The notes: a model not told the origin generated them from the sequence alone. 64,000 bases of DNA from an uncultured Alphaproteobacteria bacterium (GCA_964404255.1 CAYOJJ010000006.1:11567-75566), one strand, 5' to 3'. Positions 47,635-64,000 are shown, counted from the first letter of the stretch. A program made the numbers and translations.

Positions 47635-47635
47635 C

Positions 47636-47664: not shown

Positions 47665-47675
47665 TTGCGTATTAG

Positions 47676-47745: not shown

Positions 47746-48057
47746 CTACCTTTCGAATTAATTGGTATCCTTTTGCCGTTATTGAGGTGCGTTTATTTTC
47801 CATCATCACAATATGACCGGAATATTGAAGCTGATAATAAGGTGGTCGGCCGTGGCGGACAACCTATTGTTTTTCTTTCGGGAATGTTTGGCTAACAGAT
47901 CACACCTACGGCATTCACCATATTCATCTAAAAAAGATGAGTATCTGTACATACCGCCCCCACAGTTCTGCGCGAGCATTAAGCAATAATGAACATCCAT
48001 ACTCGTTACTTTATGCTACTTAACCTAGTTAGATAAAGAACTACTAGAAATTTATAT

Positions 48058-48906
48058 ATGAATTTTGATCAATTTAGGGACGAAGATCCCTTAGCAAACC
48101 ATGAACGACTTCGTTCCAATTTCGTCAGGCAATTCGTACAACACTACAACACGCCATCCAGGACGCGGACAGCATATAATAAAGCAACGCCAAAACGCAT
48201 AGTACAATTTTGGGATAATCTTGATCAATTACCTCAGGATGTTAAAGAATGTATGGATTCTTGGAGGGTACTTGAACGGTCTGGATTTGAATTTCAGATT
48301 TTTGACGAAACGACGGCAAGAGAGTTTATCAAGGCTCAATTAGGCTCAAGATATGGAAAAGCATTTGATAAGTGTTATCATCCTTCAATGAAGTCCGACT
48401 ATTTCCGGTATAGCTACATTTTCGTAGAGGGTGGTTTCTATATTGACGCAGATGATGTCTACCATGGAGCTGTGATCGATCATCTATTTGCTGATGGGAG
48501 ATTGAAACTTCAACCATTCTGTTATGATATTGCAACAAATCAAATGGTTTCACCTTCATCTTTTGTGAATCAGGGAGCAAACAAAACGAGTTGGATTTTT
48601 TATTTCAATACAACACCATTAATCGCAAGTCCCAAACACCCTATTGTTGAACGGGCACTGCTTAACGCTACTACATATCTTGAGCAAGTATCAGAAGGAG
48701 AATTACCAGAAGTTCAGGCTTCCACTGGTCCAGGCAACCTCACCAGATCTATTTTTGAACTGCTCGCTGATCAAGCCTGTCCTGAGGAAGAATTGCTTAT
48801 TTTACATGATTGGGAGAAGATATCTACTAGTAAATGGCCGCTTAGTTATCGAAATGACAAAAGGAATTGGAGGCTTTCTAATCAGCAAGCCTATCAAACT
48901 TCATAA
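48058..48906 (+). CDS. Glycosyltransferase family 32-like (DXD sugar-binding region)
   Basis: RIVQFWDNL ... SMKSDYFRYSYIFVEGGFYIDADDV matches the GT32/Gly_transf_sug signature. The gene is AT-rich. Confidence 0.65.
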   Translation: MNFDQFRDEDPLANHERLRSNFVRQFVQHYNTPSRTRTAYNKATPKRIVQFWDNLDQLPQDVKECMDSWRVLERSGFEFQIFDETTAREFIKAQLGSRYGKAFDKCYHPSMKSDYFRYSYIFVEGGFYIDADDVYHGAVIDHLFADGRLKLQPFCYDIATNQMVSPSSFVNQGANKTSWIFYFNTTPLIASPKHPIVERALLNATTYLEQVSEGELPEVQASTGPGNLTRSIFELLADQACPEEELLILHDWEKISTSKWPLSYRNDKRNWRLSNQQAYQTS

Positions 48907-48920
48907 CAAAAATAGAAGCC

Positions 48921-51149
48921 ATGAACTTACTACGCCCTCAACTGGCCATTATCAGTTATGCTTTTCGAACGTGGCTCTCTTTTCGCAGGCTTCTACATAA
49001 ACGAAGGTGTCAAGCATTTGGTATTAAACGTAACGGAAAGCGCTTGCAAATTGAGAAGATCTATGTTATCAACCTTAACCGTGAACCTGGACGTTGGGCC
49101 AGGATGAAGCAAGAGCTCAAACGAATATTTGACTCATCAGGAGTTGAACTCCTAAATTTATCTGTGCGGCATGTTGCTATTGATGCTAATGAGTTTTCAC
49201 GAAATCCGTCTAAAGATGCTCAGATCGATCCTTTTTACACCCTTGAAGATCAGTTATTTGTAGAACCCCAACCGCTGGTTCTTCCAACCCGCCTCGAACT
49301 AAATGAACCGATTCGAATGAGTCGAGCTGAGTGTGCCGTTGCGCAATCACATATCAGTGTATGGAAACAGGTTGCTGAGAGTAATAACGAATACGTACTC
49401 ATACTTGAGGATGATGTATGGTTTCATTTAAACTTCGCAAGCGATTTAGATAAGGTGTGGAATGATCTAGAAAATGATTTGCAGGGTAAATTTGACATTC
49501 TTTATTTGTCTTATCTTGAAGTAAAGCATGGTGCGCCAAAAACTATTTTGTCAAGGAATGTATTTAGACCAATGCGTGGACTTTGGCACCTGTCTGGGTA
49601 TGTGCTTTCTAGAAATGGCGCTGAAAAACTTCTAGGTCTTCTCCCATGTCGTGGCCCGATTGATCTTTGGATAAATCAGCAGTTCAAAACATTGGATGTG
49701 CTTGCAGCTAAACATTCTCTTATTAGCCAACGCAGGGACACTAAATCTAGCAATTCGTATTCAATACTTCCCACACTTACTAAGATAGGGGCAATCACTA
49801 GTGAGGGGGCAGCATTATTTAATATCCGGCCAGCTGAGCAGCCCGTATTTGCTTTTGGCCCTGAAGGTACTGGCCAGTCATCGCTTGCAATGGCCTTGTC
49901 TATGCTAGGATACAGGTGCTGTAGTGATTTCCAAGATATACCTTTAGCTGAAATGGATAATCTTCTCAATGGAAGAGCGGAGAGAGTTTTCAATGCATAC
50001 GTGAATATTGGCTCTTTGTATTCAAAAGTTACGGAGCTCCTGATTCTATACCCAAAGGCAAAGTTTATTATTACGGCAGATAAAAAAGCCGTTTCAGACG
50101 AGATGTTCTTGAAAATGGAAGATAGTCTGAGAAATGCCGATCTGGCTATACTTTATTCAGAAAAATTGAATACGTGGCAAACCATTTGCGAACACTTAAG
50201 GTGTGCGCCACCTAAATGCTCTTACCCTATGGTGAAGGATATTGGTCAAAGACCAATTCTCAACACAAAGAATGAACACAAACCGGCTATAAAAACAAAG
50301 ATTCCTAAACGTGATAGCTCACCATGGGTCATTGAGTCCCATAAGTTATGGCGAGGTATCAGTCTTGTCGAGACAAGGAGTTGGCAGGTTGATACTGGAA
50401 CATTAGTCAAAATCACCGACTCTTTGGAATCTCATGATGCAAAACTGTGGCACCTAAGGAGAGATACTTTCACCGATAACTTGGCATTGTTTCGCCCGTC
50501 AAATGTCGAGTTTAAATCAGGTATAGGAGCTGTGCTTAACGTAAAAAAGGAATCCGTCGGCGTTCGAGATTACACTGCTGCATCGTTATCCAGCCAAAAC
50601 CAATACTTATTCGGAAAATTCGAAGCAACCATCAAAGCATCCAATGTTCCAGGAGTAGTCACTGGACTATTTCTCTACCGCAACTCCCCCCGACAGGAAA
50701 TAGATATCGAAATTACGGGTAATCGGCCAAACCGGCTCTTGGTTAATGTATTTTACAACCCAGGTACTGAAGGAGCAAACTTTGATTATGGTTATAGAGG
50801 AGCTCCGACTTATATTGAATTAGGGTTTGATGCATCTAAGGAAAGTCATCGCTTTCAAATTGAATGGGATCCGTACGAAATTAGATGGTTGGTTGACGAC
50901 AACCTCGTTCATAAACGAACTGTATGGAATCCGACACCTATTCCAGACCTTCCTATGACGTTCCATGTTAATAATTGGGTCTCTCGTTCTGCACAGCTTG
51001 CTGGGCGAATTAACAAACGACATCTCCCAGCTACCTCCATAGTTAGTGAAGTCACACTAACGGCAAATGTCGTCATTCAAAAATCCGAGGACAATGAACC
51101 GCAGTTGCAGACCCTTACTAATGTTAACCCAAGTCAGTTTATTCAATGA
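48921..51149 (+). CDS. Multidomain glycan-modifying enzyme: N-terminal GT25-like glycosyltransferase, central P-loop/sulfotransferase-like region (tentative), C-terminal GH16 glycoside hydrolase/transglycosylase
   Basis: The N-terminus (EKIYVINLNREPGRWARMKQEL ... YVLILEDDVWFH) is GT25-like. The middle has FAFGPEGTGQSSL. The C-terminus (QEIDIEITGN ... FQIEWDPYEIRWLVDDNLVHKRT) carries the GH16 ExDxE catalytic motif. Confidence 0.6.
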   Translation: MNLLRPQLAIISYAFRTWLSFRRLLHKRRCQAFGIKRNGKRLQIEKIYVINLNREPGRWARMKQELKRIFDSSGVELLNLSVRHVAIDANEFSRNPSKDAQIDPFYTLEDQLFVEPQPLVLPTRLELNEPIRMSRAECAVAQSHISVWKQVAESNNEYVLILEDDVWFHLNFASDLDKVWNDLENDLQGKFDILYLSYLEVKHGAPKTILSRNVFRPMRGLWHLSGYVLSRNGAEKLLGLLPCRGPIDLWINQQFKTLDVLAAKHSLISQRRDTKSSNSYSILPTLTKIGAITSEGAALFNIRPAEQPVFAFGPEGTGQSSLAMALSMLGYRCCSDFQDIPLAEMDNLLNGRAERVFNAYVNIGSLYSKVTELLILYPKAKFIITADKKAVSDEMFLKMEDSLRNADLAILYSEKLNTWQTICEHLRCAPPKCSYPMVKDIGQRPILNTKNEHKPAIKTKIPKRDSSPWVIESHKLWRGISLVETRSWQVDTGTLVKITDSLESHDAKLWHLRRDTFTDNLALFRPSNVEFKSGIGAVLNVKKESVGVRDYTAASLSSQNQYLFGKFEATIKASNVPGVVTGLFLYRNSPRQEIDIEITGNRPNRLLVNVFYNPGTEGANFDYGYRGAPTYIELGFDASKESHRFQIEWDPYEIRWLVDDNLVHKRTVWNPTPIPDLPMTFHVNNWVSRSAQLAGRINKRHLPATSIVSEVTLTANVVIQKSEDNEPQLQTLTNVNPSQFIQ

Positions 51150-52780
51150 AAATTATATCATTTAATCCCGGTCATGATGGCGCTTTTGTTTACCTCGAAG
51201 ACGGGCAGTTGATTGCCTCGATTGAAGCTGAGAAAAACTCTCGTTATCGTCACTCGCCGCTTTCTGTGCCAGATGCGTTCAGCATTCTAGGTGAACTTAG
51301 AGAGGTGCCGGATGTGCTTTGTAGAGGAGGGTGGTGGCCAGGCAATTCTCTTTCGTCTGAGCAGCGCTCTCTTGCTGGATACTATGGTTTAAGCAACAGT
51401 GATATTATCACCGGTCAAAAACGCCTTTTAGGAAAGAATGTTGATTATTTCTCCTCTTCGCACGAACGATCCCATCTTCTTTGCGCCTTTGGTATGTCAG
51501 ATTTACCAAAGGGAACCCCCTGCTACGCTCTACTTTGGGAAGGCGTGATCGGTTCGTTTTACGAAATTGATGCTGAGTTAAATTTGACAAAACTCGCGGA
51601 TGTTATGCCTGAGCCAGGACATCGATATGCCTTGCTTTACGGCTTGGCTGACCCAACCTTTGATAAAAAAAATGCAGAATTCTCGCGATTTTCCGACGCA
51701 GGGAAGTTAATGGCATTAACTTCATTTTCGAAGAGAAGCAAACCTACGGATGAGGAGGAAAAGATAATAGAGTTTCTAATGCAAGACACTCTTCATCTAA
51801 AGGCATACGAGTGCGAAGCCTTAAGACATTATTGTCACTATAATGTAGGATTGGATGATGTTGAGTTTCGTAACTTCACAGGTATAGTAAGCGATAGAAT
51901 ATTTGATCGTTTTTATCAGTATGCCAAATTGAAGATGAAGAGAAACATGCCGCTGCTCATTACTGGTGGGTGTGGTCTTAATTGTGATTGGAATTCGAAA
52001 TGGAGCGAGGCTAATCTCTTTTCGGAAATATTTGTACCACCTGTCGCCAATGATTCAGGGTCAGCTATTGGCACGGCGATTGATGCCCAATTCCATTTCA
52101 CTGGCAATCCTAAGATAAATTGGAGTGTCTACTCTGGTCTTGAATTTAATGCTGAGGGCCCATTTGATGCATCATTATTTGACGAGTACGAAACAAGTTA
52201 TACAATGATTTCTGAAATGCTTGCAAATGATTTGATTGTCGGATGGGTAGATGGGAAATATGAAATTGGCCCTCGTGCCTTGGGAAATCGTTCAATTCTT
52301 GCTTCACCCTTTCATGAAAGCACTAGAATTCGGCTAAACGAGATTAAGCAGCGCGAACAGTTTCGCCCAATTGCACCTGTTTGCTTAGAAGAAGATGCTC
52401 CAAGATGGTTTAATTGCAATCAGTCTAGCCCATATATGCTTTACACGAAGATTGTTTCTACAGATGCTCTCGCTGCGGTGACCCACGTCAATGGTACTGC
52501 ACGTATACAAACGGTATCTAATAAAACCAACAGCCACTTATATAAATTGCTTATTGCCTTCAAGGCACTCACTGGCTATGGGGTTTTGTGTAATACTTCT
52601 TTGAATTTCAAGGGGAGAGGATTCATAAACAATATTGCTGATCTCGCAACATATACAATAGACCACAATTTGGATGGATTTGTAATTGCAGAAAAATGCT
52701 ATATGTTAAGGAGCTCTAAAAGTTATCAGGCCTATCTTAGTATCAAAAATTCAGTACGGCACAGGGAACGCCAAAATTGA
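51146..52780 (+). CDS. Carbamoyltransferase, NodU/CmcH family
   Basis: MKIISFNPGHDGAFVYLEDGQLIASIEAEKNSRYRHS is a carbamoyltransferase N-terminal signature; 544 aa. ATGA overlap with the previous gene. Confidence 0.75.
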   Translation: MKIISFNPGHDGAFVYLEDGQLIASIEAEKNSRYRHSPLSVPDAFSILGELREVPDVLCRGGWWPGNSLSSEQRSLAGYYGLSNSDIITGQKRLLGKNVDYFSSSHERSHLLCAFGMSDLPKGTPCYALLWEGVIGSFYEIDAELNLTKLADVMPEPGHRYALLYGLADPTFDKKNAEFSRFSDAGKLMALTSFSKRSKPTDEEEKIIEFLMQDTLHLKAYECEALRHYCHYNVGLDDVEFRNFTGIVSDRIFDRFYQYAKLKMKRNMPLLITGGCGLNCDWNSKWSEANLFSEIFVPPVANDSGSAIGTAIDAQFHFTGNPKINWSVYSGLEFNAEGPFDASLFDEYETSYTMISEMLANDLIVGWVDGKYEIGPRALGNRSILASPFHESTRIRLNEIKQREQFRPIAPVCLEEDAPRWFNCNQSSPYMLYTKIVSTDALAAVTHVNGTARIQTVSNKTNSHLYKLLIAFKALTGYGVLCNTSLNFKGRGFINNIADLATYTIDHNLDGFVIAEKCYMLRSSKSYQAYLSIKNSVRHRERQN

Positions 52781-52861
52781 GACTATCGAGAAGTTGTCGG
52801 CAACATTAGAAATAGAAATGTACAAACTGTTTATTAAAGACTCTTATTTGAAATAATAACG

Positions 52862-52890
52862 AAGCCGCTCAAACGCGGCTTTTTATTTTG
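52862..52890 (+). terminator. Rho-independent terminator of glycan cassette
   Basis: AAGCCGCTCAAACGCGGCTTTTTATTTT. Confidence 0.75.
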
Positions 52891-52909
52891 AAATGGGTGC
52901 TGCTTTTTA

Positions 52910-52978
52910 ATTAGTATCAGGGTCATAGGGTCAAACCCCTATAGGTTTGACCCTATGACCCTTTGACCCTGGGGTTGC
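52910..52978. repeat. Right copy of palindrome-containing direct repeat (ATTAGTATCAGGGTCATAGGGTCAAACC-CCTATAGG-GTTTGACCCTATGACCCTTTGACCCTGG)
   Basis: Near-perfect 18-nt inverted arms around a palindromic centre. It shares the ATTAGT...AGGGTCA.AGGGTCA...ATGACCCTTTGACCCT backbone with the 47676-47745 copy. Confidence 0.75.
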
Positions 52979-54044
52979 GGTAGTGCCCTGGGCGTCCTTT
53001 GGTTAATCCTTCTCTAATACCTCTTTTGGCAGTGGAGTGTGATACCTCGAACTGGTCCTGGTAGCGCTGAAGTAATTCCCCATACGGCAGTTCTTCCTCG
53101 TCATCCTCAAAGAGGAGGGAGCAATCTCTTTCCGGTTTATAACTTCCGGGTAGGGTAAAATCGCTGTGGGGCCGTTCGTTGCCGGTGCGGGTAAAGGTAA
53201 GGGAGTGCTCATGAAACTGCAATTCGAGCGCTTTTTCTTTTAGTTTGCCGGAGACTCCATTACCTTTAAGCACCGAAAGGTATCGTATGCCTTCTGCTTC
53301 TCCTTTTCTGAGTTCGAGCAGCAATCTCGTTTTTTGTCCCAGTGCACCGGCGCCTTGTACATGCCGTTGGTTCGGAGCTACGGAATAGGCCGCTTTATTT
53401 AAGTGATGGATAAACAAAAGAAGGCATTCGAATTTATTGGCCAGCAGCGCAAAGGGTTTGAGAAATGCCCGTACATCGGTGTTCGAATTTCCATCCCTGC
53501 CGTTAAAGAGATCGCCGTAGCTATCTAAGACGATCAGATCCACGGGGTTTGCTGAAAGCATCGTGAACAGGTTCTCTAAGAGGGCCTTGGTATGTATCTG
53601 ATCGGCAAAGACTATTTGCAGGTGGTCGCGGTTGCAGCTTGCCGTATGATCTGCGCTAGCCTGCAATTGCTTTGTAAAGGCAAATTGGGTGGTATCGATG
53701 CTATCCTCGGTGGAAACATAGATGGCTCTCGAGTGGCGAAGCGATAAGGGAAAGCCAAGAAATTCGCTGCGGCCAAGGGAAATACTTAAGGCCAGTTCTC
53801 GGCAAAACATCGACTTCCCGCTATCGGGAGCACCGGCAATCGCTGCTAATCCCATCACCGGCATGATAGCGCCCCAGAGGTAGCGGTGCGGGGTGCTCTG
53901 GCGCTCGAGTAACTGGCCGAGCGAAAAGATGTATTGCTCGGATTCCGATTCATTCTCCGCTTGCTTGAAGAACGAGTCTAAGTCGGCGATAGAAGATTCG
54001 GGTTGAAAGATGGAATTCACGGCTTCTTCCGTACTGGGGTTCAT
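52953..54044 (-). CDS. AAA_25/RepA-like RecA-fold ATPase (mobile-element replicative helicase-like)
   Basis: Walker A GAPDSGKSM and Walker B-like IVLDSYGDLF, ~363 aa. The 5' part of the longest ORF overlaps the repeat, so the true start may be downstream. Confidence 0.6.
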   Translation of the reverse strand: MNPSTEEAVNSIFQPESSIADLDSFFKQAENESESEQYIFSLGQLLERQSTPHRYLWGAIMPVMGLAAIAGAPDSGKSMFCRELALSISLGRSEFLGFPLSLRHSRAIYVSTEDSIDTTQFAFTKQLQASADHTASCNRDHLQIVFADQIHTKALLENLFTMLSANPVDLIVLDSYGDLFNGRDGNSNTDVRAFLKPFALLANKFECLLLFIHHLNKAAYSVAPNQRHVQGAGALGQKTRLLLELRKGEAEGIRYLSVLKGNGVSGKLKEKALELQFHEHSLTFTRTGNERPHSDFTLPGSYKPERDCSLLFEDDEEELPYGELLQRYQDQFEVSHSTAKRGIREGLTKGRPGHYRNPRVKGS

Positions 54045-55057
54045 TGGGTGAGTTCTTTCTCTATGTATTCTTTGTAAATGAGATCGGCAGCGTCAAGCCC
54101 GTCCGAAGGATCGGTTGTCAGTTTCCATTGGTCAAGTTTCTCGGCCTGGCAATTGATATCAGTGAGAATCTTGCACGCCTTCTGTGCACCGGTTTCACCG
54201 GCAGTATCGCAATCGTATAATACTTTAACGGTTCTTCCACGAAGGATGAGCGCTTTCTCTTTAGTAAGTCCGTTCGCACCGCCGCTTGCAATCCATATAA
54301 ATTCCGGTTTATGATGACTTAAAATGATAGCCGTTTTTTCCGACTCAACAAGAATAATTTGCGTGTTCCGATTATACGGCACCCCGTACCGATTCTTAAA
54401 TCCCGCACATAACTGATGTTCGCCAAAAAGGCAGGTGTGAAATCCCTCCGATTTTGAATACAGGAAGGAAGCGGGGGAGTGCTTATCGCGGTGGAAGCCA
54501 TCCGGTAAATACTTTATTTTCTTGGCGTTGACATATTGTTGCCGGTAATTCTGGTACCAATAGAGCACGGCTCCATCCGAAGCGAAGCCGATATTCCAGT
54601 CCGATAAAATGCTTTCTCTGGTCAAGCGGATTATTGTCTCAGCAAACGGATGTACTGCGCGAAGCCTTTTAAGCTCCGAGTGCAGGCGTTGGCTTGTAAG
54701 CCCTGAACGCTCGTTTGCTTCTGCGGTCGTTAAGCCACCATCAAACTCCATAATAGCTGCCCTTTCTTCAAATGAGTCGCATTCGGTATTCTGATCTTCG
54801 CTAGCGAACCCTACAATGGTTTTGGCCACCTGTTGCCGATTGATGAATTGCTGCAATTGCTGTGGCCTTGTCTTCTTGCCCTGTTCTCGATGGGCATTCG
54901 CCGTATCGGTTATTGGTGGAAAGATGGTACTGTCACAGGAAAAGCAATGCCCAAAGTGCTCGTGTCCTTTGAACGCAGCAAAGGCAGTCCGAGCAGCACA
55001 TCGGGGGCACCGTGTTCTTTTATTTGAATAAGAATATGTTGGGAATGCAGTAGCCAT
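54041..55057 (-). CDS. DNA primase with CHC2-type zinc finger and Toprim domain (P4-alpha/mobile-element type)
   Basis: N-terminal CPRCAARTAF...GHCFSCDS zinc finger and a C-terminal Toprim region (ILVESEKTAIIL ... VLYDCDTAGETGAQK). ATGA overlap with the ATPase gene. Confidence 0.65.
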   Translation of the reverse strand: MATAFPTYSYSNKRTRCPRCAARTAFAAFKGHEHFGHCFSCDSTIFPPITDTANAHREQGKKTRPQQLQQFINRQQVAKTIVGFASEDQNTECDSFEERAAIMEFDGGLTTAEANERSGLTSQRLHSELKRLRAVHPFAETIIRLTRESILSDWNIGFASDGAVLYWYQNYRQQYVNAKKIKYLPDGFHRDKHSPASFLYSKSEGFHTCLFGEHQLCAGFKNRYGVPYNRNTQIILVESEKTAIILSHHKPEFIWIASGGANGLTKEKALILRGRTVKVLYDCDTAGETGAQKACKILTDINCQAEKLDQWKLTTDPSDGLDAADLIYKEYIEKELTQ

Positions 55058-55225
55058 CGGATCCAGCGGTTGCTAAGACAACATGGCCCGAGCCAAGTGC
55101 CTATAGCTCGGTGGAGGATTGCGGTTTTTCAAATGCATCTGGGCCGAGTTGCCTATTAGTTTGAGACCTAATTTTTAAAATGGTGTCTTACTATACGTGT
55201 ATATTGTGCAGCAGTATTTCTGGTT

Positions 55226-55789
55226 GTGAAACGCCGTCAGTTAACCGATGAGGAATTAATAGCAGGGCTGCGTGGGACTCACCGCGAAGCTGAAATCGCA
55301 TTTACCGAAATCTACAGCCGATATGCACAGCGAACCTATGCGTTCATCTTACGAATGATGGGCGATGGTGCCGCCAGTGAAGATATTCTGCAAGAGGTCT
55401 TTCTTAAATTCTTCAATGCCACCCGGCAGCAATTAGTCTTTACTAACCTTCGGGCATTCATTTTTATGATCGCGCGTAACCAGTGTCTTAATTACAAGCG
55501 GGATGTGCCGCAAACCGAATCGATCGAGCACATGGAATTCGTGGTTCACGAATTTTCAGGAGCGATCGAGCAGAATGAGTTACTGCAGTTGGTTACCTTA
55601 TCGCTGGAGTTACTCGAGATCGAATTTCGAGAAGCGTTTGTGCTCAAGTATTACCAGGGGTATTCGTATGAGGAGATGTCTCAGCTAACCGGCGATACGA
55701 TACCGGCACTCAAGAATAGAGTATGGCGGGCCAAAGAACAAATACGCCGGGCATTGAAACCCTATATAATAGAAGAGCAAAATAAATAG
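55226..55789 (+). CDS. RNA polymerase ECF-type sigma factor
   Basis: Sigma70 region 2 (RYAQRTYAFILRMMGDGAASEDILQEVFLKFF) and region 4 (FREAFVLKYYQGYSYEEMSQLTG). Confidence 0.8.
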   Translation: MKRRQLTDEELIAGLRGTHREAEIAFTEIYSRYAQRTYAFILRMMGDGAASEDILQEVFLKFFNATRQQLVFTNLRAFIFMIARNQCLNYKRDVPQTESIEHMEFVVHEFSGAIEQNELLQLVTLSLELLEIEFREAFVLKYYQGYSYEEMSQLTGDTIPALKNRVWRAKEQIRRALKPYIIEEQNK

Positions 55790-55803
55790 TACTACCTATA
55801 GTT

Positions 55804-56865
55804 ATGTCCTACGAAAAACGGATTCACGATTATTTGGCGGGCGAACTCAGCCCGGAAGAAGAGCGGCGGCTCTTTGACGATCTTTCGGCCCATCCTGAAT
55901 GGCGGCACGAACTTACTGCTCAATTAAAGATCGAGCAGGCAGCCCAAAAAGATTTAGGGACGGTTGTTGTCCCGACTGCTGTGACGGCGGCTATTTTTTC
56001 CTCCCTGGATTTTGCGGCTCCCGATCAATCTATTGCTTCACCGGTAAAGACGATGACTGGAGTTACCGGAACAACTATTCTCTCTCGCTTTGGACTCTTT
56101 GCTATGGTATCAACGGTGTCGGCTATCATAGCAGTTGGATGCTTAGTATTTATGCTGTACCGCTCCTCGGAAACTACACCGATCGTACATTCTGCAAGCG
56201 CCCCTAACGTTTATTCATCGGTACATGATAGTGTACAAACTCACAGTTCTACCTCAGAGCCCAATCAGGTAGTTAAGGCTGCAACTTCGTCGCCTGCCGC
56301 CACAAAAGAAATGACGGCATTGAAAACTCCTTTTATCAAGACTATCCCCAACGAACCAATGAGGTTCTATTTTGATATCGGAAGATTTTCCTCTGTGGAT
56401 TATCTCACACAGAAAAAAATCATCGGTGTTGCCGACGAAGGAAAAATCTATTGTTCGGAAGATGGAGGCAAATCGTGGGAAATGCAAACGAGCGGGACTT
56501 CCAGCGATCTCTATGGAGTACATTTTATCGATACCACTCATGGTATTGCTGTCGGTGCGAAGGGTACCGTCTTACATACCAGTACTGCCGGAAGGGAATG
56601 GCAAAAAATGTCCAGCGGTACCGAAGCGACGCTGGCAACGGTTCGCTATGCTAATCGCGATACCGTTTATGCCTGTGGTGCACAGGGGACTATTATTCGG
56701 AGCACTTCCAGCGGGATACAATGGCAGCAGCTTGAAAGTGGTACAACGGCAAATTTATTTAAGATCAGATTTGAAAACGGTTCGACTGGTATTGTCGGCG
56801 GCGAACACAATCTGACGCTTGAAACCGATAATGCCGGTACTACCTGGCATGTGAAACCACAATAA
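55804..56865 (+). CDS. Anti-sigma factor: N-terminal zf-HC2-like segment, TM helix, C-terminal BNR/Ycf48-like beta-propeller
   Basis: N-terminus MSYEKRIHDYLAGELSPEEERRLFDDLSAHPEWRHEL and a TM segment. The C-terminus has repeated xTSGTxxxLxxVxFxxxxxGxAVGxxGTIL units. Confidence 0.6.
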   Translation: MSYEKRIHDYLAGELSPEEERRLFDDLSAHPEWRHELTAQLKIEQAAQKDLGTVVVPTAVTAAIFSSLDFAAPDQSIASPVKTMTGVTGTTILSRFGLFAMVSTVSAIIAVGCLVFMLYRSSETTPIVHSASAPNVYSSVHDSVQTHSSTSEPNQVVKAATSSPAATKEMTALKTPFIKTIPNEPMRFYFDIGRFSSVDYLTQKKIIGVADEGKIYCSEDGGKSWEMQTSGTSSDLYGVHFIDTTHGIAVGAKGTVLHTSTAGREWQKMSSGTEATLATVRYANRDTVYACGAQGTIIRSTSSGIQWQQLESGTTANLFKIRFENGSTGIVGGEHNLTLETDNAGTTWHVKPQ

Positions 56866-56879
56866 TAATCACGATCGTC

Positions 56880-59800
56880 ATGAAAGATATTGCTATGGCT
56901 ACTCACAGACGAGCTCAATGGTTAGTGCTGGGATTATTATTATGCGGAGCAATAAATATTGCTTCGGCTCAGGTCCCGAAGACTATCTCTTATCAGGGAA
57001 GAATTCAGCAGGGGACTTCGCTTGTGAGCGGCAAACATTTGCTGCACATTGCTTTTTATGATGCCGAGACCGGTGGAACAAAGCTCTACGAAGAATCTCA
57101 ACAGCAGGAAATCTCCGATGGATTATTCTCGATCGTGATCGGGACGGTCACTCCTTTCCCTGCTTCTTTGCCATTCGATAAACCATACTTTCTGGCTATA
57201 AGTATCGATGGTGCGGATGAACTACTGCCGAGAACTCCTATGACGAGTGTTCCTTACTCGCTTAATAGTCATTACGCGGAGTTAGCAAAAGGCCTTACTC
57301 CTGATGCGAATGGAGTTGTCACCAGTATTAATGAATTAAGCGGAGCTATTCGTATAACGGGTGATAGTACAACTGCTATTACGCAAACCGGTAATATAAT
57401 TTCTATTCATTCTTTCGGAAGTGGCAGCACAGCTACTGCCGGAATTCAATCGATTACGAGCCCGGATAAAACAATTGCAATAACCGGTACTGCCGGGCCA
57501 AGCACCACAATCGGTGTTGCCGATAACGCTATTACTACCTCAAAGCTCGCTAACGGTGCGGTTACTCTTTCAAAGATAAATCAGAGTGGCGCTAAAATTG
57601 GGCAGATCATTAAATGGAATGGCAGCTCCTGGGTTGCAGCAGATACGACTATTCCTTCTGCTTCGAATCTTATTCCGGGCACAACACCGAATAGCACCCT
57701 TAGATGGAATGGTACGCAATGGGTGGAAAATACCAATCTCCGCAGTGACGCAACTGGCAATACGAGCGTAAATGGCAGTACTACACTCGGTGATGGGACC
57801 GGTAATGATGACCTCACTATTCAACCCGGCTCCGGCGTAGTAAAGATAGCAGGTTTTGGAAAAGGAGTTGTAAAGAGCACGGCGGTGGGAGTTCTTTCAA
57901 GCACTGCTCTTGATTTAGCGAACGATGTGACCGGTATACTATCAGTCTCAAAAGGTGGTACGGGCGTCTCGACTCTTCCTGTAGGTCAACTGCTTGTCGG
58001 CAACGGAGTAAACCCAATTAGTACCATGAGCTTAAATGCCGGTGCAGGAATTGCTATTAGCTCGAATGGCAGCGCGCTAACTATTACTAATATAGATACA
58101 CTCCAATGGAAACTGCTGGGTAATACTACTATCAATCCTGCTACACAATTTTTAGGCACTACCGATCTGAATCCGATCCCATTTCGTACCAATAATATCG
58201 AGCACATGCGCCTTGATGCATCGGGAAAACTCGGTATCGGTACTACGGTGCCATCTCAATTGCTCGAAGTTAGAAATGGAAATATCCTTATTTCGAATTC
58301 CGGTACAGCAGGGAGTTTACAGATAGCCGCACCGGGAAACAGCTTGTCCACTGCTTTTACAACCTCATCTCAAACGGCCGATATAACATATAAATTACCT
58401 CCAAGCATTGGCACTGCTAATCAGGCGCTCGCCATTGCTTCGGTTTCCGGTACTACCGCTACGCTTGGTTGGGTTAATGCGGCAAGTGCTACGGCCTGGA
58501 ATCTCATCGGCAATAGCAGCACTACTGCCGGAACAAATTTTCTTGGTACCACCGATGATCAGCCACTGTATGTGCAAGTTAAAAATGGCGCGACGGTTTC
58601 CAATAGTCTTATTCTCAATCCTAATGGTTCGATCCAGCATAGCCCAACTCGCAATGCGAGAGGGGCTAGTGCAGTCGATCTTCAGCTCAATGGTGCGGTG
58701 GGCACTCATGTGGCCAGCGGTCAGTATTCGGTACTATCCGGTGGCAGAAATAATGTAGCGGGAGGGGATGGCTCTGTCGTTGCAGGTGGCGAAGGTAATT
58801 CTACCGTTTCAAATTATTCCGTTGTCGGCGGTGGAGCTTCTTCGGTTGCCGGGGGAAGTTATTCCGTTGTAAGCGGAGGAAATTTAAACAGTGCCAGTGG
58901 TGCACTCTCATCGGTGATCGGTGGAATAGCTAACGAGTCATTTGGTGCTCGTTCGTCAGTTCTTGGAGGCGGCTATTTAAAGTTAGGTGCCAATAGTGTC
59001 GGCTATAATTATGAATCCGGGACTACTATAACCAATATCAGTGCTCTGAGCAATCTGGCATATTTTGGTAATGTCGATATGATGATCGGTAATACCGATA
59101 ATACTGCGCGTGAGCTTCGCTTCTACGAACCTAATACGTCCTTCACGTATACTGCTACAAACTTCAGCTCCTTCAAAGCCGGCACACAGGCAAGCGATAT
59201 TATTTATATACTTCCAACTTCACAACCAACGGCTAATCAGGTTCTTTCGGCAACTTCTATAACAGGATCAGGGCCGTATACTATTGGGCTTGGTTGGACG
59301 AACAGTGCTAATGCAGCCTGGAATCTTACAGGTAATAGTGGGACGACGGATGGCACAAATTTTCTCGGCACTACTGATAACGTCCCATTCACTATTCGTG
59401 CAAATAATATACGGGCATTTCGGATAGAGCCGTTTGCAGGTGCAGTAAACATTATTGCGGGAATAAATACTAATAGTGTCGGAAGTGGATTTTCTGGAGC
59501 TACAATTTCCGGAGGAGGATCAACCTTTAGTCCAAATACTATTTCAAATTATTTTGCTACAATATCTGGTGGCGCCCAGAATACTGTTACGGCCAATGGA
59601 GGAGTGGTTGCCGGTGGTCAGGTGAATGCCGCAGGTGGTTCGGTTGGTTCTACGGTTAGCGGTGGTTTTTATAATACTGCAAGCGGTTCATTATCTAGTA
59701 TTGCCGGAGGTTCGAGTTTAAAAGTTGGAAATCTTAGTTTCGGATTCAATGGTGAGCAATATAGCATCAATCCAAGTACTACTATAACAGACATCTCTTC

Positions 59801-62800
59801 GCATTCAAATACCGCTTATTTCGGAAATGTGGACCTATGGCTCGGTAATGTTGATAACACCGCAAGAGGGCTGCGCTTTTACGAACCCAATTCATCGCGC
59901 ACCTATACCAATACTAACTTTTCATCCTTCAAAGCCGGGACACAAACGGATGATATTATTTATACACTGCCGACTTCGCAGCCAACCGTCAATCAGATAC
60001 TTTCCGTCACTTCAGTAAGCGGGTCCTCTCCATACGAAGTAGCCCTTGGCTGGGCAACGAGCACCGGGCCGGCCTGGAATCTTACCGGGAATAGTGGTAC
60101 TACGATCGGCACAAATTTCCTGGGCACGACCGATAATCAACCCTTTGAAATACTTGTAAAGAATGGAAGCTCTATTAGTAATTCCTTGATCTTTGAATCT
60201 AATGGCTCTATTCATCGGGACAATCAGGGGAATGCCCGCGGAGCGTATGCCATCGATCTGCAATCTCTTCCGACCGGTGCCTCAGCACTTCATGTAGCCA
60301 GCGGTAATCAATCTGCCATTTTGGGTGGAGTAAGTAACCAGGCAAGCGGGGCCTATTCTGTTAGCACCGCAGGATATGATAATATCGCATCCGGAGACTA
60401 TTCTGCTATTGGCGGTGGAGATGCAAACAGCGCAACGGGCAGCCATGCAACTATTAGTGGTGGGCGGTATAACGTTGCCTCGGGAGATGGGTCATTTATC
60501 GGTGGCGGTGGTTATCAGGGAGCGACGAAACCTAATGTTGCTGCCGGTACTGCTTCGGCGATTGTCGGAGGATGGGCCAATTATACTGCGGGGTTCTATT
60601 CATCAGTGGCCGGAGGAGAAAGTAATGGGGTAACAGGTACAAGTTCTGCCATTGCCGGAGGAGGATATTTGCGCTTAGCAGGCAACGGATCTTTTGGTTT
60701 TAATAATGGAAGCAGCGCCTCGGATAGTGCTTATGTAAGTGCGAACGCTACGGCCTATTTTGGCAATGTCGATCTGTGGCTTGGTAATACCAATAACACC
60801 GCAAGCCAGTTGAGATTTTATGAAGCGCAAAATGGCGGCATAACCATGCCGGGAGCTGCTACAAATTATTCGGCATTCAAAGCCGGTGCACAAACAGCCG
60901 ATATTACTTATACGCTTCCAACAACCCAGCCGAGCGCTAATCAAGTGCTTTCGGCAACGACCGTCAGTGGAACGGGGCCTTATTCCGTAACTCTTGGTTG
61001 GGCAGATGCCGGTACTGGCAGTGGGTTTGTCAATTACGGTCCAACGACTGCTCAAGCTACACTGACTCCGAGAACAACACCGCTATTTAATATAGCCTAT
61101 ATATCTTCTGCCGCTAATGCTAATGCCGCAGGCGCTACTATTACATCCAGTGCAGGAACCGCGGGTAATTTTAATGCTACCGGTCTAACTGTTATTGCTA
61201 CTGCTACCGGCACCGGGCTTGCAAGAGCTATCGATGCAACCGGAAGAGTAAATATTAATGCGCCGTCGAGTTATGATATTGGCGGGACAAGATTTTTATG
61301 GACGGGCGCAAATTCTTCAAATCAGAATACTCTGGTCGGTAATACCGGGAATACAGTAAATGCTGCAAACCTTAATACGTTTGTAGGATACAATGCCGGA
61401 TACAGCAATGATTATGGGGATGGTAATACGTTTCTGGGTGCAGAAAGCGGTAAGAATACAAACGGCGCTTCTGGCTCGGATAACACATTCGTTGGCGCTG
61501 AATCGGGCTATTCGAATACTGATGGAACACAGAATACTTTTATCGGCAGTTATTCCGGCTATTTCAATACTACAGGAAATTATAATATTTTTATTGGTGA
61601 AAATACCGGTTTTTCAAATGTCAGTGGGACAAGCAATACATTTGTGGGAATGAATGCCGGCTGGCAAAATACGGCAAACAGTAATTCGCTGTTCGGACAA
61701 GGTTCTGGATTTAACCTTAAAACAGGATCAAACAATACCTTTATAGGAGTATCAAGCGGTTACTACGATACTTCGGGAGGAAGTAACGTTATGATCGGGG
61801 TCAGTTCGGGCCTTTACCATAAGGCCGGAGATAATAATACCTACATCGGAAGAGGCTCGGGAAGTATCGATACGGCAGGTATCAATAATACAATGATAGG
61901 ATATGGAGCAAGCCCAACGGCAGGTCATTTCAGTAATGCGACAGCTATTGGAGCTTCGGCACAGGTCGGCGCAAGTAATAGTATCATTCTCGGTAGTATT
62001 TCCCCGGTAACAAAAGTCGGAATTGGTACCATTGCTCCGCAACAACAATTAAATATTGAGAACGGTAATGTTCTTCTTTCGAGAACGACAGGCAATAGTC
62101 CGGATTCAATACAATTCCAGGGTACGGGCACCGGAATATCTTCATTTGCTGCCGGAGCCCAAAGTACAACCACGATAAATTATACATTGCCGACCTCGCA
62201 GCCAAGTGCTAACCAAGTGCTGACGGCAAGTTCGGTAAGTGGCTCTGGTCCCTATTCGGTTGCTCTTAGTTGGGCTAATAGTACTGCGTCGGTTTGGAGT
62301 CTGTCCGGAAATAGTGGAACAAGTTCTTCGTCCAATTTTATTGGCACGACGGATAATCAGGATCTCGTCATTAAAACCAATAATAGTGAGGCTCTTCGGG
62401 TAAAAGCCTCCGGGAATATTGGTCTTGGCACCACTACTCCTTCTCATAAATTACATAGTGTTAATAGCACCACTACCGATGAAGTTGCTGCTATCTATGG
62501 TACTACCACCAGCTCGACTTCCAGCCAGTCTATTGGTATGTGGGCAGATGCAAGTAATACTGCCACTTCAAATACCGGTACTATTGCTATGCTTGCTACG
62601 GGTAATGGGAATACAACGGCCGGACAAACCAACATTGCCCTCCAGGTAAACGATGGAGAATTTACTATAGGAAGAACAACAGAAACGCCAACGACGGGTA
62701 CCACCGTTAATGCTGCTACCGGTGGTACCGATTACTCTGCAGAAGGACCGAGTGGGATGGTTGAATTGACACTGGGCAATGGAAATCTTGCAACTGCTGC

Positions 62801-63077
62801 TCCCACCGCCAACACGATGCAGAGTTTTGGAGCAATCACTATTAATAATCGATATTGTCAGGCAGCAAGTATCGTACTGGTCAATGTATCGGGTATGACC
62901 GAAGATGGCACAGCACCGGATGTGCGGGATGCAGCATTCATAGTAAATGTAGATAATATCGCCGCAGGGTCATTTTCAGTTCGTATCAAGATGATACCTT
63001 CGGCCACCAATGCTACCAACTATAGCTCGAACGATAAAATAAGAATAGGGTACGTCATTGTAAATCCTTCCAGATAA
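56880..63077 (+). CDS. Giant secreted repeat protein (2065 aa) with ~6 internal ~200-aa repeats and tail-fibre-like NxFxGxxAG C-terminal region
   Basis: Signal peptide. Repeats of FKAGTQ..DIIYTLPTSQPTANQVLSATSVSGSGPY..LGW...WNLTGNSGTT.GTNFLGTTDNQP. A C-terminal run of NTFVG..AG / NTFIG..SG heptad-like repeats is followed by ATAIGASAQVGASNSIILGS...VGIGT. Confidence 0.7.
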   Translation: MKDIAMATHRRAQWLVLGLLLCGAINIASAQVPKTISYQGRIQQGTSLVSGKHLLHIAFYDAETGGTKLYEESQQQEISDGLFSIVIGTVTPFPASLPFDKPYFLAISIDGADELLPRTPMTSVPYSLNSHYAELAKGLTPDANGVVTSINELSGAIRITGDSTTAITQTGNIISIHSFGSGSTATAGIQSITSPDKTIAITGTAGPSTTIGVADNAITTSKLANGAVTLSKINQSGAKIGQIIKWNGSSWVAADTTIPSASNLIPGTTPNSTLRWNGTQWVENTNLRSDATGNTSVNGSTTLGDGTGNDDLTIQPGSGVVKIAGFGKGVVKSTAVGVLSSTALDLANDVTGILSVSKGGTGVSTLPVGQLLVGNGVNPISTMSLNAGAGIAISSNGSALTITNIDTLQWKLLGNTTINPATQFLGTTDLNPIPFRTNNIEHMRLDASGKLGIGTTVPSQLLEVRNGNILISNSGTAGSLQIAAPGNSLSTAFTTSSQTADITYKLPPSIGTANQALAIASVSGTTATLGWVNAASATAWNLIGNSSTTAGTNFLGTTDDQPLYVQVKNGATVSNSLILNPNGSIQHSPTRNARGASAVDLQLNGAVGTHVASGQYSVLSGGRNNVAGGDGSVVAGGEGNSTVSNYSVVGGGASSVAGGSYSVVSGGNLNSASGALSSVIGGIANESFGARSSVLGGGYLKLGANSVGYNYESGTTITNISALSNLAYFGNVDMMIGNTDNTARELRFYEPNTSFTYTATNFSSFKAGTQASDIIYILPTSQPTANQVLSATSITGSGPYTIGLGWTNSANAAWNLTGNSGTTDGTNFLGTTDNVPFTIRANNIRAFRIEPFAGAVNIIAGINTNSVGSGFSGATISGGGSTFSPNTISNYFATISGGAQNTVTANGGVVAGGQVNAAGGSVGSTVSGGFYNTASGSLSSIAGGSSLKVGNLSFGFNGEQYSINPSTTITDISSHSNTAYFGNVDLWLGNVDNTARGLRFYEPNSSRTYTNTNFSSFKAGTQTDDIIYTLPTSQPTVNQILSVTSVSGSSPYEVALGWATSTGPAWNLTGNSGTTIGTNFLGTTDNQPFEILVKNGSSISNSLIFESNGSIHRDNQGNARGAYAIDLQSLPTGASALHVASGNQSAILGGVSNQASGAYSVSTAGYDNIASGDYSAIGGGDANSATGSHATISGGRYNVASGDGSFIGGGGYQGATKPNVAAGTASAIVGGWANYTAGFYSSVAGGESNGVTGTSSAIAGGGYLRLAGNGSFGFNNGSSASDSAYVSANATAYFGNVDLWLGNTNNTASQLRFYEAQNGGITMPGAATNYSAFKAGAQTADITYTLPTTQPSANQVLSATTVSGTGPYSVTLGWADAGTGSGFVNYGPTTAQATLTPRTTPLFNIAYISSAANANAAGATITSSAGTAGNFNATGLTVIATATGTGLARAIDATGRVNINAPSSYDIGGTRFLWTGANSSNQNTLVGNTGNTVNAANLNTFVGYNAGYSNDYGDGNTFLGAESGKNTNGASGSDNTFVGAESGYSNTDGTQNTFIGSYSGYFNTTGNYNIFIGENTGFSNVSGTSNTFVGMNAGWQNTANSNSLFGQGSGFNLKTGSNNTFIGVSSGYYDTSGGSNVMIGVSSGLYHKAGDNNTYIGRGSGSIDTAGINNTMIGYGASPTAGHFSNATAIGASAQVGASNSIILGSISPVTKVGIGTIAPQQQLNIENGNVLLSRTTGNSPDSIQFQGTGTGISSFAAGAQSTTTINYTLPTSQPSANQVLTASSVSGSGPYSVALSWANSTASVWSLSGNSGTSSSSNFIGTTDNQDLVIKTNNSEALRVKASGNIGLGTTTPSHKLHSVNSTTTDEVAAIYGTTTSSTSSQSIGMWADASNTATSNTGTIAMLATGNGNTTAGQTNIALQVNDGEFTIGRTTETPTTGTTVNAATGGTDYSAEGPSGMVELTLGNGNLATAAPTANTMQSFGAITINNRYCQAASIVLVNVSGMTEDGTAPDVRDAAFIVNVDNIAAGSFSVRIKMIPSATNATNYSSNDKIRIGYVIVNPSR

Positions 63078-63086
63078 GAAGCAACT

Positions 63087-64000
63087 ATGATTCGTACCAT
63101 TTGTGCTCTGGTAGCAATACTGATATTGTTAGTAGAACCGATTCGGGCACAGACGATCTCCGGAGTGATCAATACTTATTATAAAGTTATTGATGTCGAT
63201 AGTTGTCATAACCAATTGATCGTTTCTTCAACAACAGGGCTTACCGCCGGAATGAAGCTACTGCTTATTCAAATGCAAGGAGCCGTCGTTGATCGTAGCA
63301 ATACTGCTTCTTTTGGATCGATAACTTCATTGGAAGGTGCAGGCACTCATGAATTTGTAACGATCGAATCGGTTACTGCTACCACTATAACGATCAGGAA
63401 TAAACTCTTGCATCACTATGATGCGCTTTCGCAAGTGCAGGCAGTCGCTGTGCCGCAGTACTCTTCGGCAACGGTTGTAAGCACACTGCTTGCCGGAGCC
63501 TGGGATGGCGAAAAGGGTGGCGTGCTGGTACTGATGGCCGATACACTCACCCTTCGAGGCGATATAGAAGCCTCCGGTCTTGGGTTTCGCGGAGGCTTCG
63601 TTTCAAATAACTCCGGAGCAACTTCCAAACAAGATTATTTCTACGATGGCGTTTCCGGCGAGGGGGCGTTTAAAGGAGAAGGCATTTCAATTGCCACTAC
63701 TGCATACGAAGCAGGTCGTGGTGCCATTGCCAATGGCGGTGGTGGTGGGAATGCCCGCAACAGTGGCGGTGGAGGTGGCGCTTGCGCCGGTAATGGAGGC
63801 AGAGGTGGCGATCAGATCGATCAATTTACGCGAATTCCTATCGGTGGCGAAGGCGGGTATGAAGTTCATGCTTCTCCATCGCAAATTATTATGGGCGGAG
63901 GAGGAGGAGGAGGACAGCAAAATGATTTTGCCGGAAGTTCGGGCGGTGCCGGCGGTGGAATAATTTATATCAAAGCAAACGTACTGATGGGAGGCGCTGC
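63087..64000 (+). CDS. Secreted Gly-rich protein, partial (continues beyond window end)
   Basis: My translation is MIRTICALVAILILLVEPIRAQ (signal) ... GGGGGNARNSGGGGGACAGNGGRGG ... GGGGGGQQNDFAGSSGGAGGG. The frame stays open to position 64000 and is absent from the complete-ORF track. Confidence 0.5.
   Translation, partial: MIRTICALVAILILLVEPIRAQTISGVINTYYKVIDVDSCHNQLIVSSTTGLTAGMKLLLIQMQGAVVDRSNTASFGSITSLEGAGTHEFVTIESVTATTITIRNKLLHHYDALSQVQAVAVPQYSSATVVSTLLAGAWDGEKGGVLVLMADTLTLRGDIEASGLGFRGGFVSNNSGATSKQDYFYDGVSGEGAFKGEGISIATTAYEAGRGAIANGGGGGNARNSGGGGGACAGNGGRGGDQIDQFTRIPIGGEGGYEVHASPSQIIMGGGGGGGQQNDFAGSSGGAGGGIIYIKANVLMGGA

Follow-up and report, generated by a model that had tools for sequence, protein, structure and literature searches.

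Introduction

Long surface proteins that resemble tail fibres are frequent among diderms, Bacteroidota and Bdellovibrio included. The mosaic adhesive trimer (MAT) fibres of Bdellovibrio bacteriovorus, which fall into S74 and non-S74 subfamilies, combine a fixed base with a chimeric stalk and swappable tips; their N-terminal domain has no solved structure, and the export, anchoring and regulation of such fibres are explicitly stated to be unsolved (Caulton et al. 2024, PMC10769870). Here we describe a locus at the end of a stretch of 64,000 nucleotides (GCA_964404255.1 CAYOJJ010000006.1:11567-75566, deposited as an uncultured Alphaproteobacteria bacterium and called the window below) in which an extracytoplasmic function (ECF) sigma factor, an anti-sigma factor, a 2065-aa secreted fibre protein and a glycine-rich (Gly-rich) secreted protein are encoded one after another. 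We favor, with some reserve, the reading that the region carries four of the five genes, from the first onwards, of a conserved operon that builds and controls a cell-surface fibre, in a host from the Kapaibacteria/Ignavibacteria branch of the Bacteroidota that bears a type IX secretion system (T9SS). The cassette appears to be a cell-surface adhesin system in which a stress-type sigma factor switches on a giant fibre; it is a new version of kinds of fibre already described and is not surprising in kind.

By analogy, the fibre would work most like a MAT-type mosaic fibre. Each has a Sec signal and an N-terminal domain that stays constant within its own family, followed by a long chimeric stalk in which some segments are phage-tail-fibre-like; the C-terminal end is formed by an S74 chaperone or by a beta-sandwich cap unrelated to it. 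Tips are exchanged among paralogues, several of which are found per genome. The two differ in that sequence similarity is marginal (to Bd2133, E=0.25), and in that the window fibre, which comes from another phylum, has roughly double the length, contains UspA1-type head units in several copies, keeps its tip conserved, and is encoded in an ECF sigma/anti-sigma operon together with genes for T9SS cargo and an OmpA-barrel protein.

The fibre is neither a type Vc autotransporter, nor an S74 tail fibre, nor a T9SS cargo protein. With the type Vc adhesins UspA1 and YadA it shares a unit core homologous to the UspA1 head beta-roll, and its operon resembles the AtaA-TpgA system of Acinetobacter sp. 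Tol 5, in which TpgA is encoded downstream of AtaA, in having an OmpA-type peptidoglycan-binding protein encoded downstream. It differs from the type Vc adhesins in having neither the C-terminal 12-strand translocator barrel nor coiled-coil stalk or neck Pfam domains, and it is not a type Vc autotransporter because there is no anchor barrel; its polarity is probably the opposite, with the base N-terminal and the tip C-terminal. Endosialidase/S74-type phage fibres resemble it in a block of 17-residue repeats with its ..AIG..GIGT transition, in the tip fold and in the existence of relatives that end in Peptidase_S74, whereas the window fibre lacks S74, has a signal peptide, has no virion genes around it and consists mostly of an adhesin-type repeat. 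As for T9SS cargo and the SprB/RemA adhesins, likenesses are a host T9SS with PorX and several proteins carrying a C-terminal sorting domain (CTD), giant repeat surface proteins, and a post-fibre gene whose orthologues encode type-A CTD cargo with PKD/Ig domains; the fibre itself, however, has neither a type-A nor a type-B CTD, and no PorP/SprF partner gene is present.

A probable five-gene operon kept in relatives

An earlier, sequence-only reading of this DNA had placed an ECF sigma factor with its anti-sigma factor, a giant repeat protein and a Gly-rich protein at 55226-64000. Calling of open reading frames (ORFs) over the window recovered all four, on the + strand and with intergenic gaps of 14, 14 and 9 nt, so that the dedicated sigma/anti-sigma pair does lie directly upstream of the fibre-like giant and in the same apparent operon.

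55226-55789, + strand, ECF sigma factor, 187 aa
55804-56865, + strand, single-pass anti-sigma factor, 353 aa
56880-63077, + strand, giant secreted mosaic fibre protein, 2065 aa
63087-64000, + strand, 5' part of the gene for an AgmC_N-like Gly-rich secreted protein, 304 aa visible; runs past the window end

The DNA past 64000 was assessed through orthologous loci of relatives (working numbers: L for loci, P for homologues of the fibre). The order sigma factor, BNR-type anti-sigma factor, fibre, AgmC_N-like protein of 961-1308 aa and barrel protein of 668-692 aa is found at the P0002 locus, L006, L008 and L009, with flanks that are unrelated among the four. L012 shows the last four cassette genes, the set being incomplete because its contig begins inside the anti-sigma gene, and the junction between anti-sigma factor and fibre is kept there and in L016 as well. 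In the five orthologous loci P0002, L006, L008, L009 and L012 the cassette closes with an OmpA-family outer-membrane protein, and the four that show the DNA beyond it continue with unrelated, locus-specific housekeeping genes. A shorter version is found at L011, where the fibre, alike in base and tip, measures 723 aa and has an AgmC_N-like gene behind it.

These flanks bear on what kind of structure the locus encodes. The sequence-only reading had envisaged a regulated fibre, adhesin or tailocin-like structure and had pointed to the downstream genes as the place to look for tailocin parts; what follows in the orthologous loci is the OmpA-type barrel gene and then housekeeping genes. The fibre or adhesin operon thus stands, and the tailocin does not: sheath, tube, baseplate and chaperone genes were found on neither side of the cassette at the P0002 locus, L006, L008 or L009, and L012 holds cassette genes only, with no tail genes. 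We regard it as most improbable that the region is a remnant of a prophage, tailocin or contractile injection system in which the giant ORF supplies the tail fibre of a phage-tail-like particle and the Gly-rich ORF encodes an additional protein of its fibre or tip. Such a remnant would account for the matches of fibre residues ~1460-1793 to phage tail fibre and structural proteins, for the matches of the tip model to predicted Caudovirales proteins and for the primase/helicase-like pair (DUF6371/Toprim and AAA_25) directly upstream on the opposite strand. It would not account for a Sec signal peptide, which is normally absent from virion proteins, nor for the fact that the cassette is stably kept in the chromosome and includes a sigma factor of its own; moreover, neither the fibre nor the Gly-rich ORF has a PHROG match, and no capsid, portal, sheath, tube or baseplate genes are present upstream in the window or flanking the cassette in the four relatives.

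Modules of the fibre

The layout of the fibre was obtained by internal BLAST, motif scans and a hidden Markov model (HMM) built on the repeat units. The protein is rich in G, S, T, A and N, has a single Cys and contains internal repeats far beyond chance (pairwise E down to 2e-60).

residues 1-30, + strand, signal peptide, predicted cleavage between ASA and QV
residues 31-160 (56970-57359), + strand, N-terminal domain (TISYQG...PYAL...GVVTSINE), conserved in the wider family
residues 160-400, + strand, S/T/G-rich region
residues 400-539 (58077-58496), + strand, partial unit: neck WKLLGN..FLGTTD..GIGT plus unit tail ..YKLPPS..LGW (internal BLAST, motif scan)
residues 540-813, 814-1065 and 1066-1382 (58497-61025), + strand, three complete units (internal BLAST, alignment)
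residues 1383-1482, + strand, linker
residues 1483-1686, with a ATAIGASAQVGASN cap to residue 1700 (61326-61979), + strand, twelve 17-residue NTF(V/I)GxxSGxxNTxGxx repeats (repeat listing)
residues 1687-1711 (motif 1687-1716, reaching into the next module), + strand, ATAIGASAQVGASNSIILGS..VGIGT transition
residues 1712-1845 (62013-62414), + strand, terminal partial unit: VGIGT neck, FAAGAQ..YTLPTSQP..LSW, WSLSGN..FIGTTD (internal BLAST, motif scan)
residues 1846-2065 (62415-63074), + strand, C-terminal tip module, last ~110 aa a predicted 7-strand beta-sandwich

A complete unit runs from a WNLTGN..FLGTTD neck through UspA1/YadA-like GGxxNxAxGxxS head repeats to AYFGNVD..LRFYE..FKAGTQ..YTLPTSQP..LGW. 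The signal peptide and every repeat motif quoted in the sequence-only reading could be located in the protein. That reading had counted about six units of ~200 aa; the repeats are real, but the units are 250-315 aa long, three of them complete and three partial (400-539, a tail at 1333-1382, and 1712-1845). Likewise, the NTF(V/I)G repeats that it had called heptad-like are present with a period of 17 residues, in 12 copies, and they do end as described, continuing into ATAIGASAQVGAS.NSIILGS...VGIGT. Its statement that the C-terminus lacks a T9SS sorting domain and S74 agrees with the HMM searches: neither a type-A (TIGR04183) nor a type-B (TIGR04131) sorting domain was found with NCBIfam and Pfam, and the last 308 aa gave no Pfam match even at E<=10, hence neither PF13884 (S74), a domain seen only in distant relatives, nor a YadA-type anchor barrel. 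Over the whole protein there is no Pfam, NCBIfam or PHROG family match; YadA_stalk and neck families are absent from the Pfam results, and the predicted models are without helices.

The large unit had been taken for a tail-fibre-like repeat, and this did not hold up under profile comparison, which leads to a known adhesin fold. Against sequences in the PDB, the whole fibre matches the head of the trimeric autotransporter UspA1 (3pr7, E=2.5e-14), and a profile of the unit built from 17 sequences matches the same structure at E=1.9e-25, in register with GGxxNxAxGxxS, and 3ntn at 7e-8. The Pfam family UspA1_rep matches the unit weakly, and relatives carry UspA1_rep and YadA_head in their precomputed Pfam domains. 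As a monomer the unit is modelled by AlphaFold2 with a beta-solenoid core (predicted local distance difference test, pLDDT, 73-82); the model has no significant fold match, the best being ice-binding beta-solenoids at E>=0.25. Judged by these profiles, the core of the unit is a UspA1/YadA-type adhesin-head module and not a tail-fibre repeat.

The 17-residue block has a different affinity. In a tblastn comparison of the fibre with 50,697 phage records, matches were confined to residues ~1460-1793 and came from 11 records (29-40% identity), annotated as tail fibre, tail structural or 'endo-N-acetylneuraminidase' proteins; the best (E 3e-29, 40% identity) is a 423-aa virion structural protein encoded right behind three tail-protein genes. 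As the matches are confined to this region, the statement in the sequence-only reading that the C-terminal NTFxG repeats are of phage tail-fibre and endosialidase type is borne out. In the PDB and Pfam the block found only a marginal hexapeptide-transferase match (E=0.1).

At the other end, the N-terminal domain is present in P0001-P0025, P0028 and P0029 whatever their C-terminus, the S74-ended P0019 and the stand-alone P0017 included; among relatives that share it, the C-terminal end is Peptidase_S74 in P0019, and at least four other tips occur. Homologues of the fibre come solely from Kapaibacteria, Ignavibacteria and Bacteroidota metagenome-assembled genomes (MAGs), and a profile search with the N-terminal domain yielded nothing but short fragments, all from MAGs of Ignavibacteria and Bacteroidota, and none from named families.

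On a single 3.4-Mb contig of one relative there are four fibre paralogues of 2000-3305 aa (P0018, P0020, P0022 and P0025), with UspA1_rep in three and End_tail_spike in one (precomputed Pfam). Some genomes thus seem to hold repertoires of several fibre copies.

A functional refinement of our reading is that the fibre, like MAT fibres, serves cell-cell recognition, not adhesion in general, and recognises and holds prey, a cyanobacterial or algal host, or kin. The shared MAT plan (signal peptide, invariant N-terminus, long trimer-type stalk, swapped S74 and non-S74 beta-sandwich tips; PMC10769870), the four paralogues on one contig and the weak direct match to Bd2133 at a GN(I/L)GLGT..P..LH motif (E=0.25) are what such a role would lead one to expect. 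We nevertheless consider this refinement doubtful, since the tip is strongly conserved (54-68% identity) across cassette loci where prey-range tips would be expected to diversify, and since the N-terminal domain, invariant within the window-fibre family, brings up no Bdellovibrio protein among its profile matches.

The C-terminal tip

The tip module (~220 aa) is 54-68% identical to that of 12 cassette-type homologues among P0002-P0014 and is absent from the other relatives. An AlphaFold2 model from a 13-sequence alignment shows a soluble 7-strand beta-sandwich (pLDDT ~80), confident only for the last ~110 aa (~1952-2062). Against the PDB this model has no significant fold match, the best hits (E~0.2) being generic beta-sandwich adhesins; predicted Caudovirales proteins give 12 matches at E<1e-3, and less close ones (E 0.005-0.07) lead to proteins named as a YadA-domain structural protein and a tail-fibre gp53-like C-terminal domain.

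Searched over 1.84 billion representative proteins, the tip profile finds only 234 proteins, 52 of them at E<1e-30. All of these carry it at the C-terminus and are fibre-like, with at least three kinds of N-terminus between them, and for this reason the tip is, on its sequence distribution, a swappable fibre end module and not a general sorting tag. The idea that it could be a new secretion or sorting tag was rejected: in that same search the tip is confined to the ends of fibre-like proteins and occurs on no diverse cargo.

A second idea was that the tip docks onto the AgmC_N-like protein. In T-even phages (gp37/gp38) a Gly-rich adhesin is encoded just downstream of the fibre, and this analogy was behind the idea. 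The same tip is found in loci without an AgmC_N-like gene, and docking is retained at low probability; in the PDB, no sequence homologue of the AgmC_N-like domain was found.

A further setting of the tip is seen at L043 (2163-8565; GCA_021825235.1 JAKAIL010000027.1), where three tandem fibre paralogues of ~700 aa carry PF26696 'PTL_trimer' according to a precomputed table, this family being absent from the Pfam copy used for our searches. The middle paralogue, P0067, bears the window-fibre tip, and a gene for a Por_Secre_tail protein precedes the trio. PTL_trimer-type fibres with the window-fibre tip have no regulators beside them.

The Gly-rich partner, the barrel protein and T9SS

The fourth gene had been described as secreted, poly-Gly and fibre-like. 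A signal peptide and poly-Gly tracts are indeed present, but fibre-like is not the right description, as the protein is AgmC_N-like and its orthologues are T9SS type-A cargo. The truncated ORF matches NF047640 (gliding_AgmC_N) at E=5.1e-51 with 173.9 bits against an equivalog cut-off of 275 bits, and its orthologues score 195.9-244.9 bits (E up to 1e-72); because all of these scores are under the cut-off, AgmC_N is here a shared domain only and not an equivalog. The ORF is 47-48% identical to the post-fibre genes of L006 and L011. Its orthologues are 905-1308 aa long, and those scanned carry PKD/Ig (Ig_7) domains and a T9SS type-A C-terminal sorting domain, the TIGR04183 scores being 24.2 bits in L006, 36.8 in L008 and 24.6 in L009 against a cut-off of 23. 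A literature search found no paper on AgmC.

The fifth gene in the relatives encodes a protein of 668-692 aa with an OMP_b-brl_2 barrel and two OmpA-type peptidoglycan-binding domains, which also match the TpgA model NF047726 (~1e-11).

That the organism has a T9SS follows from the window itself, which encodes a PorX orthologue at 14228-15823 (-), with receiver and PglZ domains (NF052313, 705 bits against a cut-off of 300), together with type-A cargo. Candidates for such cargo, with Por_Secre_tail, are encoded at 21877-23385 (-) and 28267-30138 (+), and the latter has an IgGFc_binding domain (E=1.6e-59). In L006, and in that relative only, a PorQ-like gene lies right after the cassette at 22645-23676 (-), scoring 202 bits against 220 for NF033711 and 147 against 90 for the PorV/PorQ family.

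Taken with the name of the AgmC model, these genes raise the question of whether the fibre and its partner are gliding-motility adhesins, mobile in the manner of SprB/RemA and driven by the T9SS/gliding machinery with the OmpA-barrel protein as an accessory. The partner N-terminus matches an NCBIfam model named for the AgmC protein of Myxococcus adventurous gliding (E=5e-51 to 1e-72), its orthologues carry T9SS type-A tags, PorX is encoded in the genome and the PorQ-like gene adjoins the cassette in L006; SprB-like adhesins are likewise giant repeat proteins. We think this quite unlikely: (i) the AgmC_N scores of 174-245 bits stay under the 275-bit cut-off and so mark a shared domain only; (ii) the fibre has no type-B CTD of the kind found in SprB-type adhesins, and no PorP/SprF-like gene is in the cassette; (iii) neither the window nor the flanks fetched for relatives showed gld genes, although no systematic search was made; and (iv) in Ignavibacteria AgmC_N-like genes occur without any fibre.

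The sigma factor, its anti-sigma factor and a conserved promoter candidate

By its domain content the first gene encodes a sigma-70 family protein of the ECF type (group 4) with regions 2 and 4 only. Sigma70_r2 (46 bits, 4.6e-12) and Sigma70_r4_2 (30.8 bits, 2.4e-7) are both above their Pfam cut-offs, and the NCBIfam model TIGR02937 (sigma70-ECF) reaches 60.5 bits where 42.9 are required; the orthologues in L013-L020 are 60-63% identical. The parts of the anti-sigma factor and a promoter-like element upstream of the sigma gene are as follows.

55162-55190, + strand, candidate ECF-type promoter TGAGAC (-35), 17 nt, GTCTTA (-10), ending 36 nt before the sigma start codon
anti-sigma residues 1-75, + strand, predicted N-terminal anti-sigma domain, conserved across orthologues (alignment with 3 orthologues)
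anti-sigma residues 96-119 (56089-56160), + strand, single transmembrane (TM) helix (hydropathy scan)
anti-sigma residues 181-353 (56344-56862), + strand, BNR/Ycf48-like domain of 4 blades (orthologue alignment, Asp-box scan)

The BNR/Ycf48-like domain that the sequence-only reading saw in the anti-sigma factor is upheld by a PSII_BNR/Ycf48 match of 54.9 bits (Pfam cut-off 27, E 1e-14), by the NCBIfam Ycf48 match (1.5e-15) and by four Asp-box-like blades from residue 181. A variable linker joins the TM helix to this highly conserved domain of ~170 aa, which in sequence terms is about half of a Ycf48 propeller. At the N-terminus, over residues 4-142, zf-HC2 (E=0.0026, weak) and the anti-sigma model NF052375 (E=1.4e-5) match under their curated cut-offs. 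The pair resembles ECF/anti-sigma modules such as the RsiV-, FecR- and RskA-type ones in its sigma factor with regions 2 and 4 only, in its single-pass and probably co-transcribed anti-sigma factor with a predicted sigma-binding domain at the N-terminus and an extracytoplasmic C-terminus, and in a candidate autoregulatory promoter with an AC-rich -35 and a GTC -10; what differs is the putative sensor, here a 4-blade BNR/Ycf48-like half-propeller. A literature search found no description of BNR-type anti-sigma factors.

ECF promoters typically have a -35 element ending in AC and a -10 element with GTC. The motif found here has a single match in the whole window, and TG(A/G)GAC-N17-GTC(T/A) precedes the orthologous sigma gene in 10 loci (the window, L006, L008, L009, L013, L014 and L017-L020), four of which came from an independent metagenome scan. 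In all fetched loci together (556 kb, both strands) there are 13 matches, and 11 of the 13 are at the position upstream of sigma, counting L007, a duplicate of L006; the match within the L012 fibre gene looks like chance. The conserved element is a candidate autoregulatory ECF promoter. A motif scan found no second copy ahead of the fibre gene or anywhere else in the window, and autoregulation with read-through to the fibre gene is suggested by the short intergenic gaps.

At L013 (1940-10963) and L014, on the metagenome contigs Ga0206906_1002 and Ga0206990_1114, the same promoter has TGGGAC as its -35. The cargo encoded there combines SBBP/DUF7948, PKD/Ig and Por_Secre_tail domains and is apparently frameshifted. 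Because these two loci keep the regulators, the cargo and the barrel gene without a fibre, the three may be an older core module.

It could be argued that the regulators and the fibre are coincidental neighbours, the sigma/anti-sigma pair being a general envelope-stress regulator and the fibre merely lying downstream of it. The promoter motif does stand only before the sigma gene, the regulators of L013 and L014 have no fibre, and related fibres that bear other tips can be found with no regulators beside them, the P0017 locus being an example. Coincidence would, however, leave unaccounted for an order of sigma factor, anti-sigma factor and fibre that is kept in the window and four relatives despite differing flanks and with very short gaps, and the fibre-less variant still keeps the regulators beside T9SS cargo and OmpA-barrel genes. 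We therefore hold this explanation to be improbable.

A working model and what weighs against it

Our working model for the five-gene operon is as follows. The anti-sigma factor would hold the sigma factor at the inner membrane until a cue from the envelope or a glycan acts on its periplasmic BNR domain of 4 blades; once released, the sigma factor would start transcription at the promoter of its own gene, and read-through would extend it over the whole operon. The fibre would be exported by Sec and form a homotrimer, as its homology to obligate trimers suggests. Its family-wide N-terminal domain would anchor it at the cell, the UspA1-like head and neck units and the phage-like 17-residue beta-helical stalk would extend it, and the conserved beta-sandwich tip would be displayed for binding to a ligand that another surface carries. 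An outer-membrane/peptidoglycan platform for the fibre may be formed or stabilised by the OmpA-barrel protein together with the partner delivered by the T9SS.

Several points weigh against this model. The fibre has neither a T9SS tag nor an autotransporter barrel that would take its 2065 aa across the outer membrane. We infer trimerisation, the surface location and the role of the N-terminal domain; the models are of monomers only and are mediocre (pLDDT 56 and 63), and the UspA1 match falls in low-complexity sequence rich in G, S, N and A (bias 13-23 bits). Immediately upstream of the fibre gene there is no copy of the promoter, so that its dependence on the sigma factor would come through co-transcription. 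The remainder of the fourth gene and the whole of the fifth lie past the window and are assigned from the relatives' loci. Finally, the parts are separable: the same tip occurs on other fibres with neither a sigma factor nor an AgmC_N-like neighbour, and in L013 and L014 the sigma/anti-sigma pair is divergent beside T9SS cargo and an OmpA-barrel gene, with no fibre.

A more far-reaching version, to which we give little weight, is that the cassette encodes a self-contained, signal-responsive surface organelle. Display of the trimeric fibre would then follow neither the type V route nor classical T9SS cargo secretion, with the AgmC_N-like and OmpA-barrel proteins as its export or docking platform, and the BNR half-propeller would sense assembly or engagement of the fibre and feed back on transcription, in a kind of cell-surface signalling. 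If true, this would reveal in the cassette the partners, so far missing, that anchor and export the widespread 'tail fiber domain-containing' and MAT-like fibres in diderms.

The cassette ties one such fibre to candidate partners, namely a T9SS cargo protein, a peptidoglycan-tethered barrel and a dedicated ECF switch with a conserved promoter, and thereby offers testable handles on regulation and anchoring. It also combines head modules of trimeric autotransporter adhesins, phage stalk repeats and swappable tips outside both autotransporter and phage settings. The five-gene cassette, the BNR-type anti-sigma factor and the conserved promoter appear to be undescribed, no description having been found in the literature searched; for Kapaibacteria the search gave genome announcements only. 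The practical weight is moderate; the carriers are uncultured or little studied and the function is inferred.

Other features of the window

The window has a G+C content (GC) of about 0.47-0.48, similar to the 48.4% of a published Kapabacteriales MAG (strain Clear-D13, 127 contigs; PMC7714850). Next to the cassette and divergent from it is the primase/helicase-like pair already mentioned, DUF6371/Toprim at 54041-55057 (-) and AAA_25 at 52953-54044 (-). The pair belongs to a region, 47563-55057, that begins with tRNA-Gln (47563-47635) and continues with a stretch of lower GC (0.41-0.42) encoding a Gly_transf_sug glycosyltransferase, a 742-aa fusion of GT25, sulfotransferase and GH16, and a carbamoyltransferase. 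The region may be the remnant of an integrated element abutting the cassette; no integrase was seen there.

The lowest-GC segment of the window (0.35) holds the gene for a 1027-aa NACHT/STAND NTPase at 33916-36999 (-), which adjoins a ClpX-like gene at 32508-33833. It has no PADLOC match and may be a defence-type STAND protein. An S-adenosylmethionine (SAM) riboswitch (RF00162, 68.6 bits) at 28056-28180 (-) lies upstream of a gene for a pyridoxal phosphate (PLP) enzyme of Cys/Met metabolism at 26684-27871 (-). A second ECF sigma factor, unrelated to the cassette, is encoded at 39573-40133 (+) with Sigma70_r2, r4_2 and Sigma70_ECF matches, and is followed by genes for Metal_resist (Spy/CpxP-like) and YHYH proteins.

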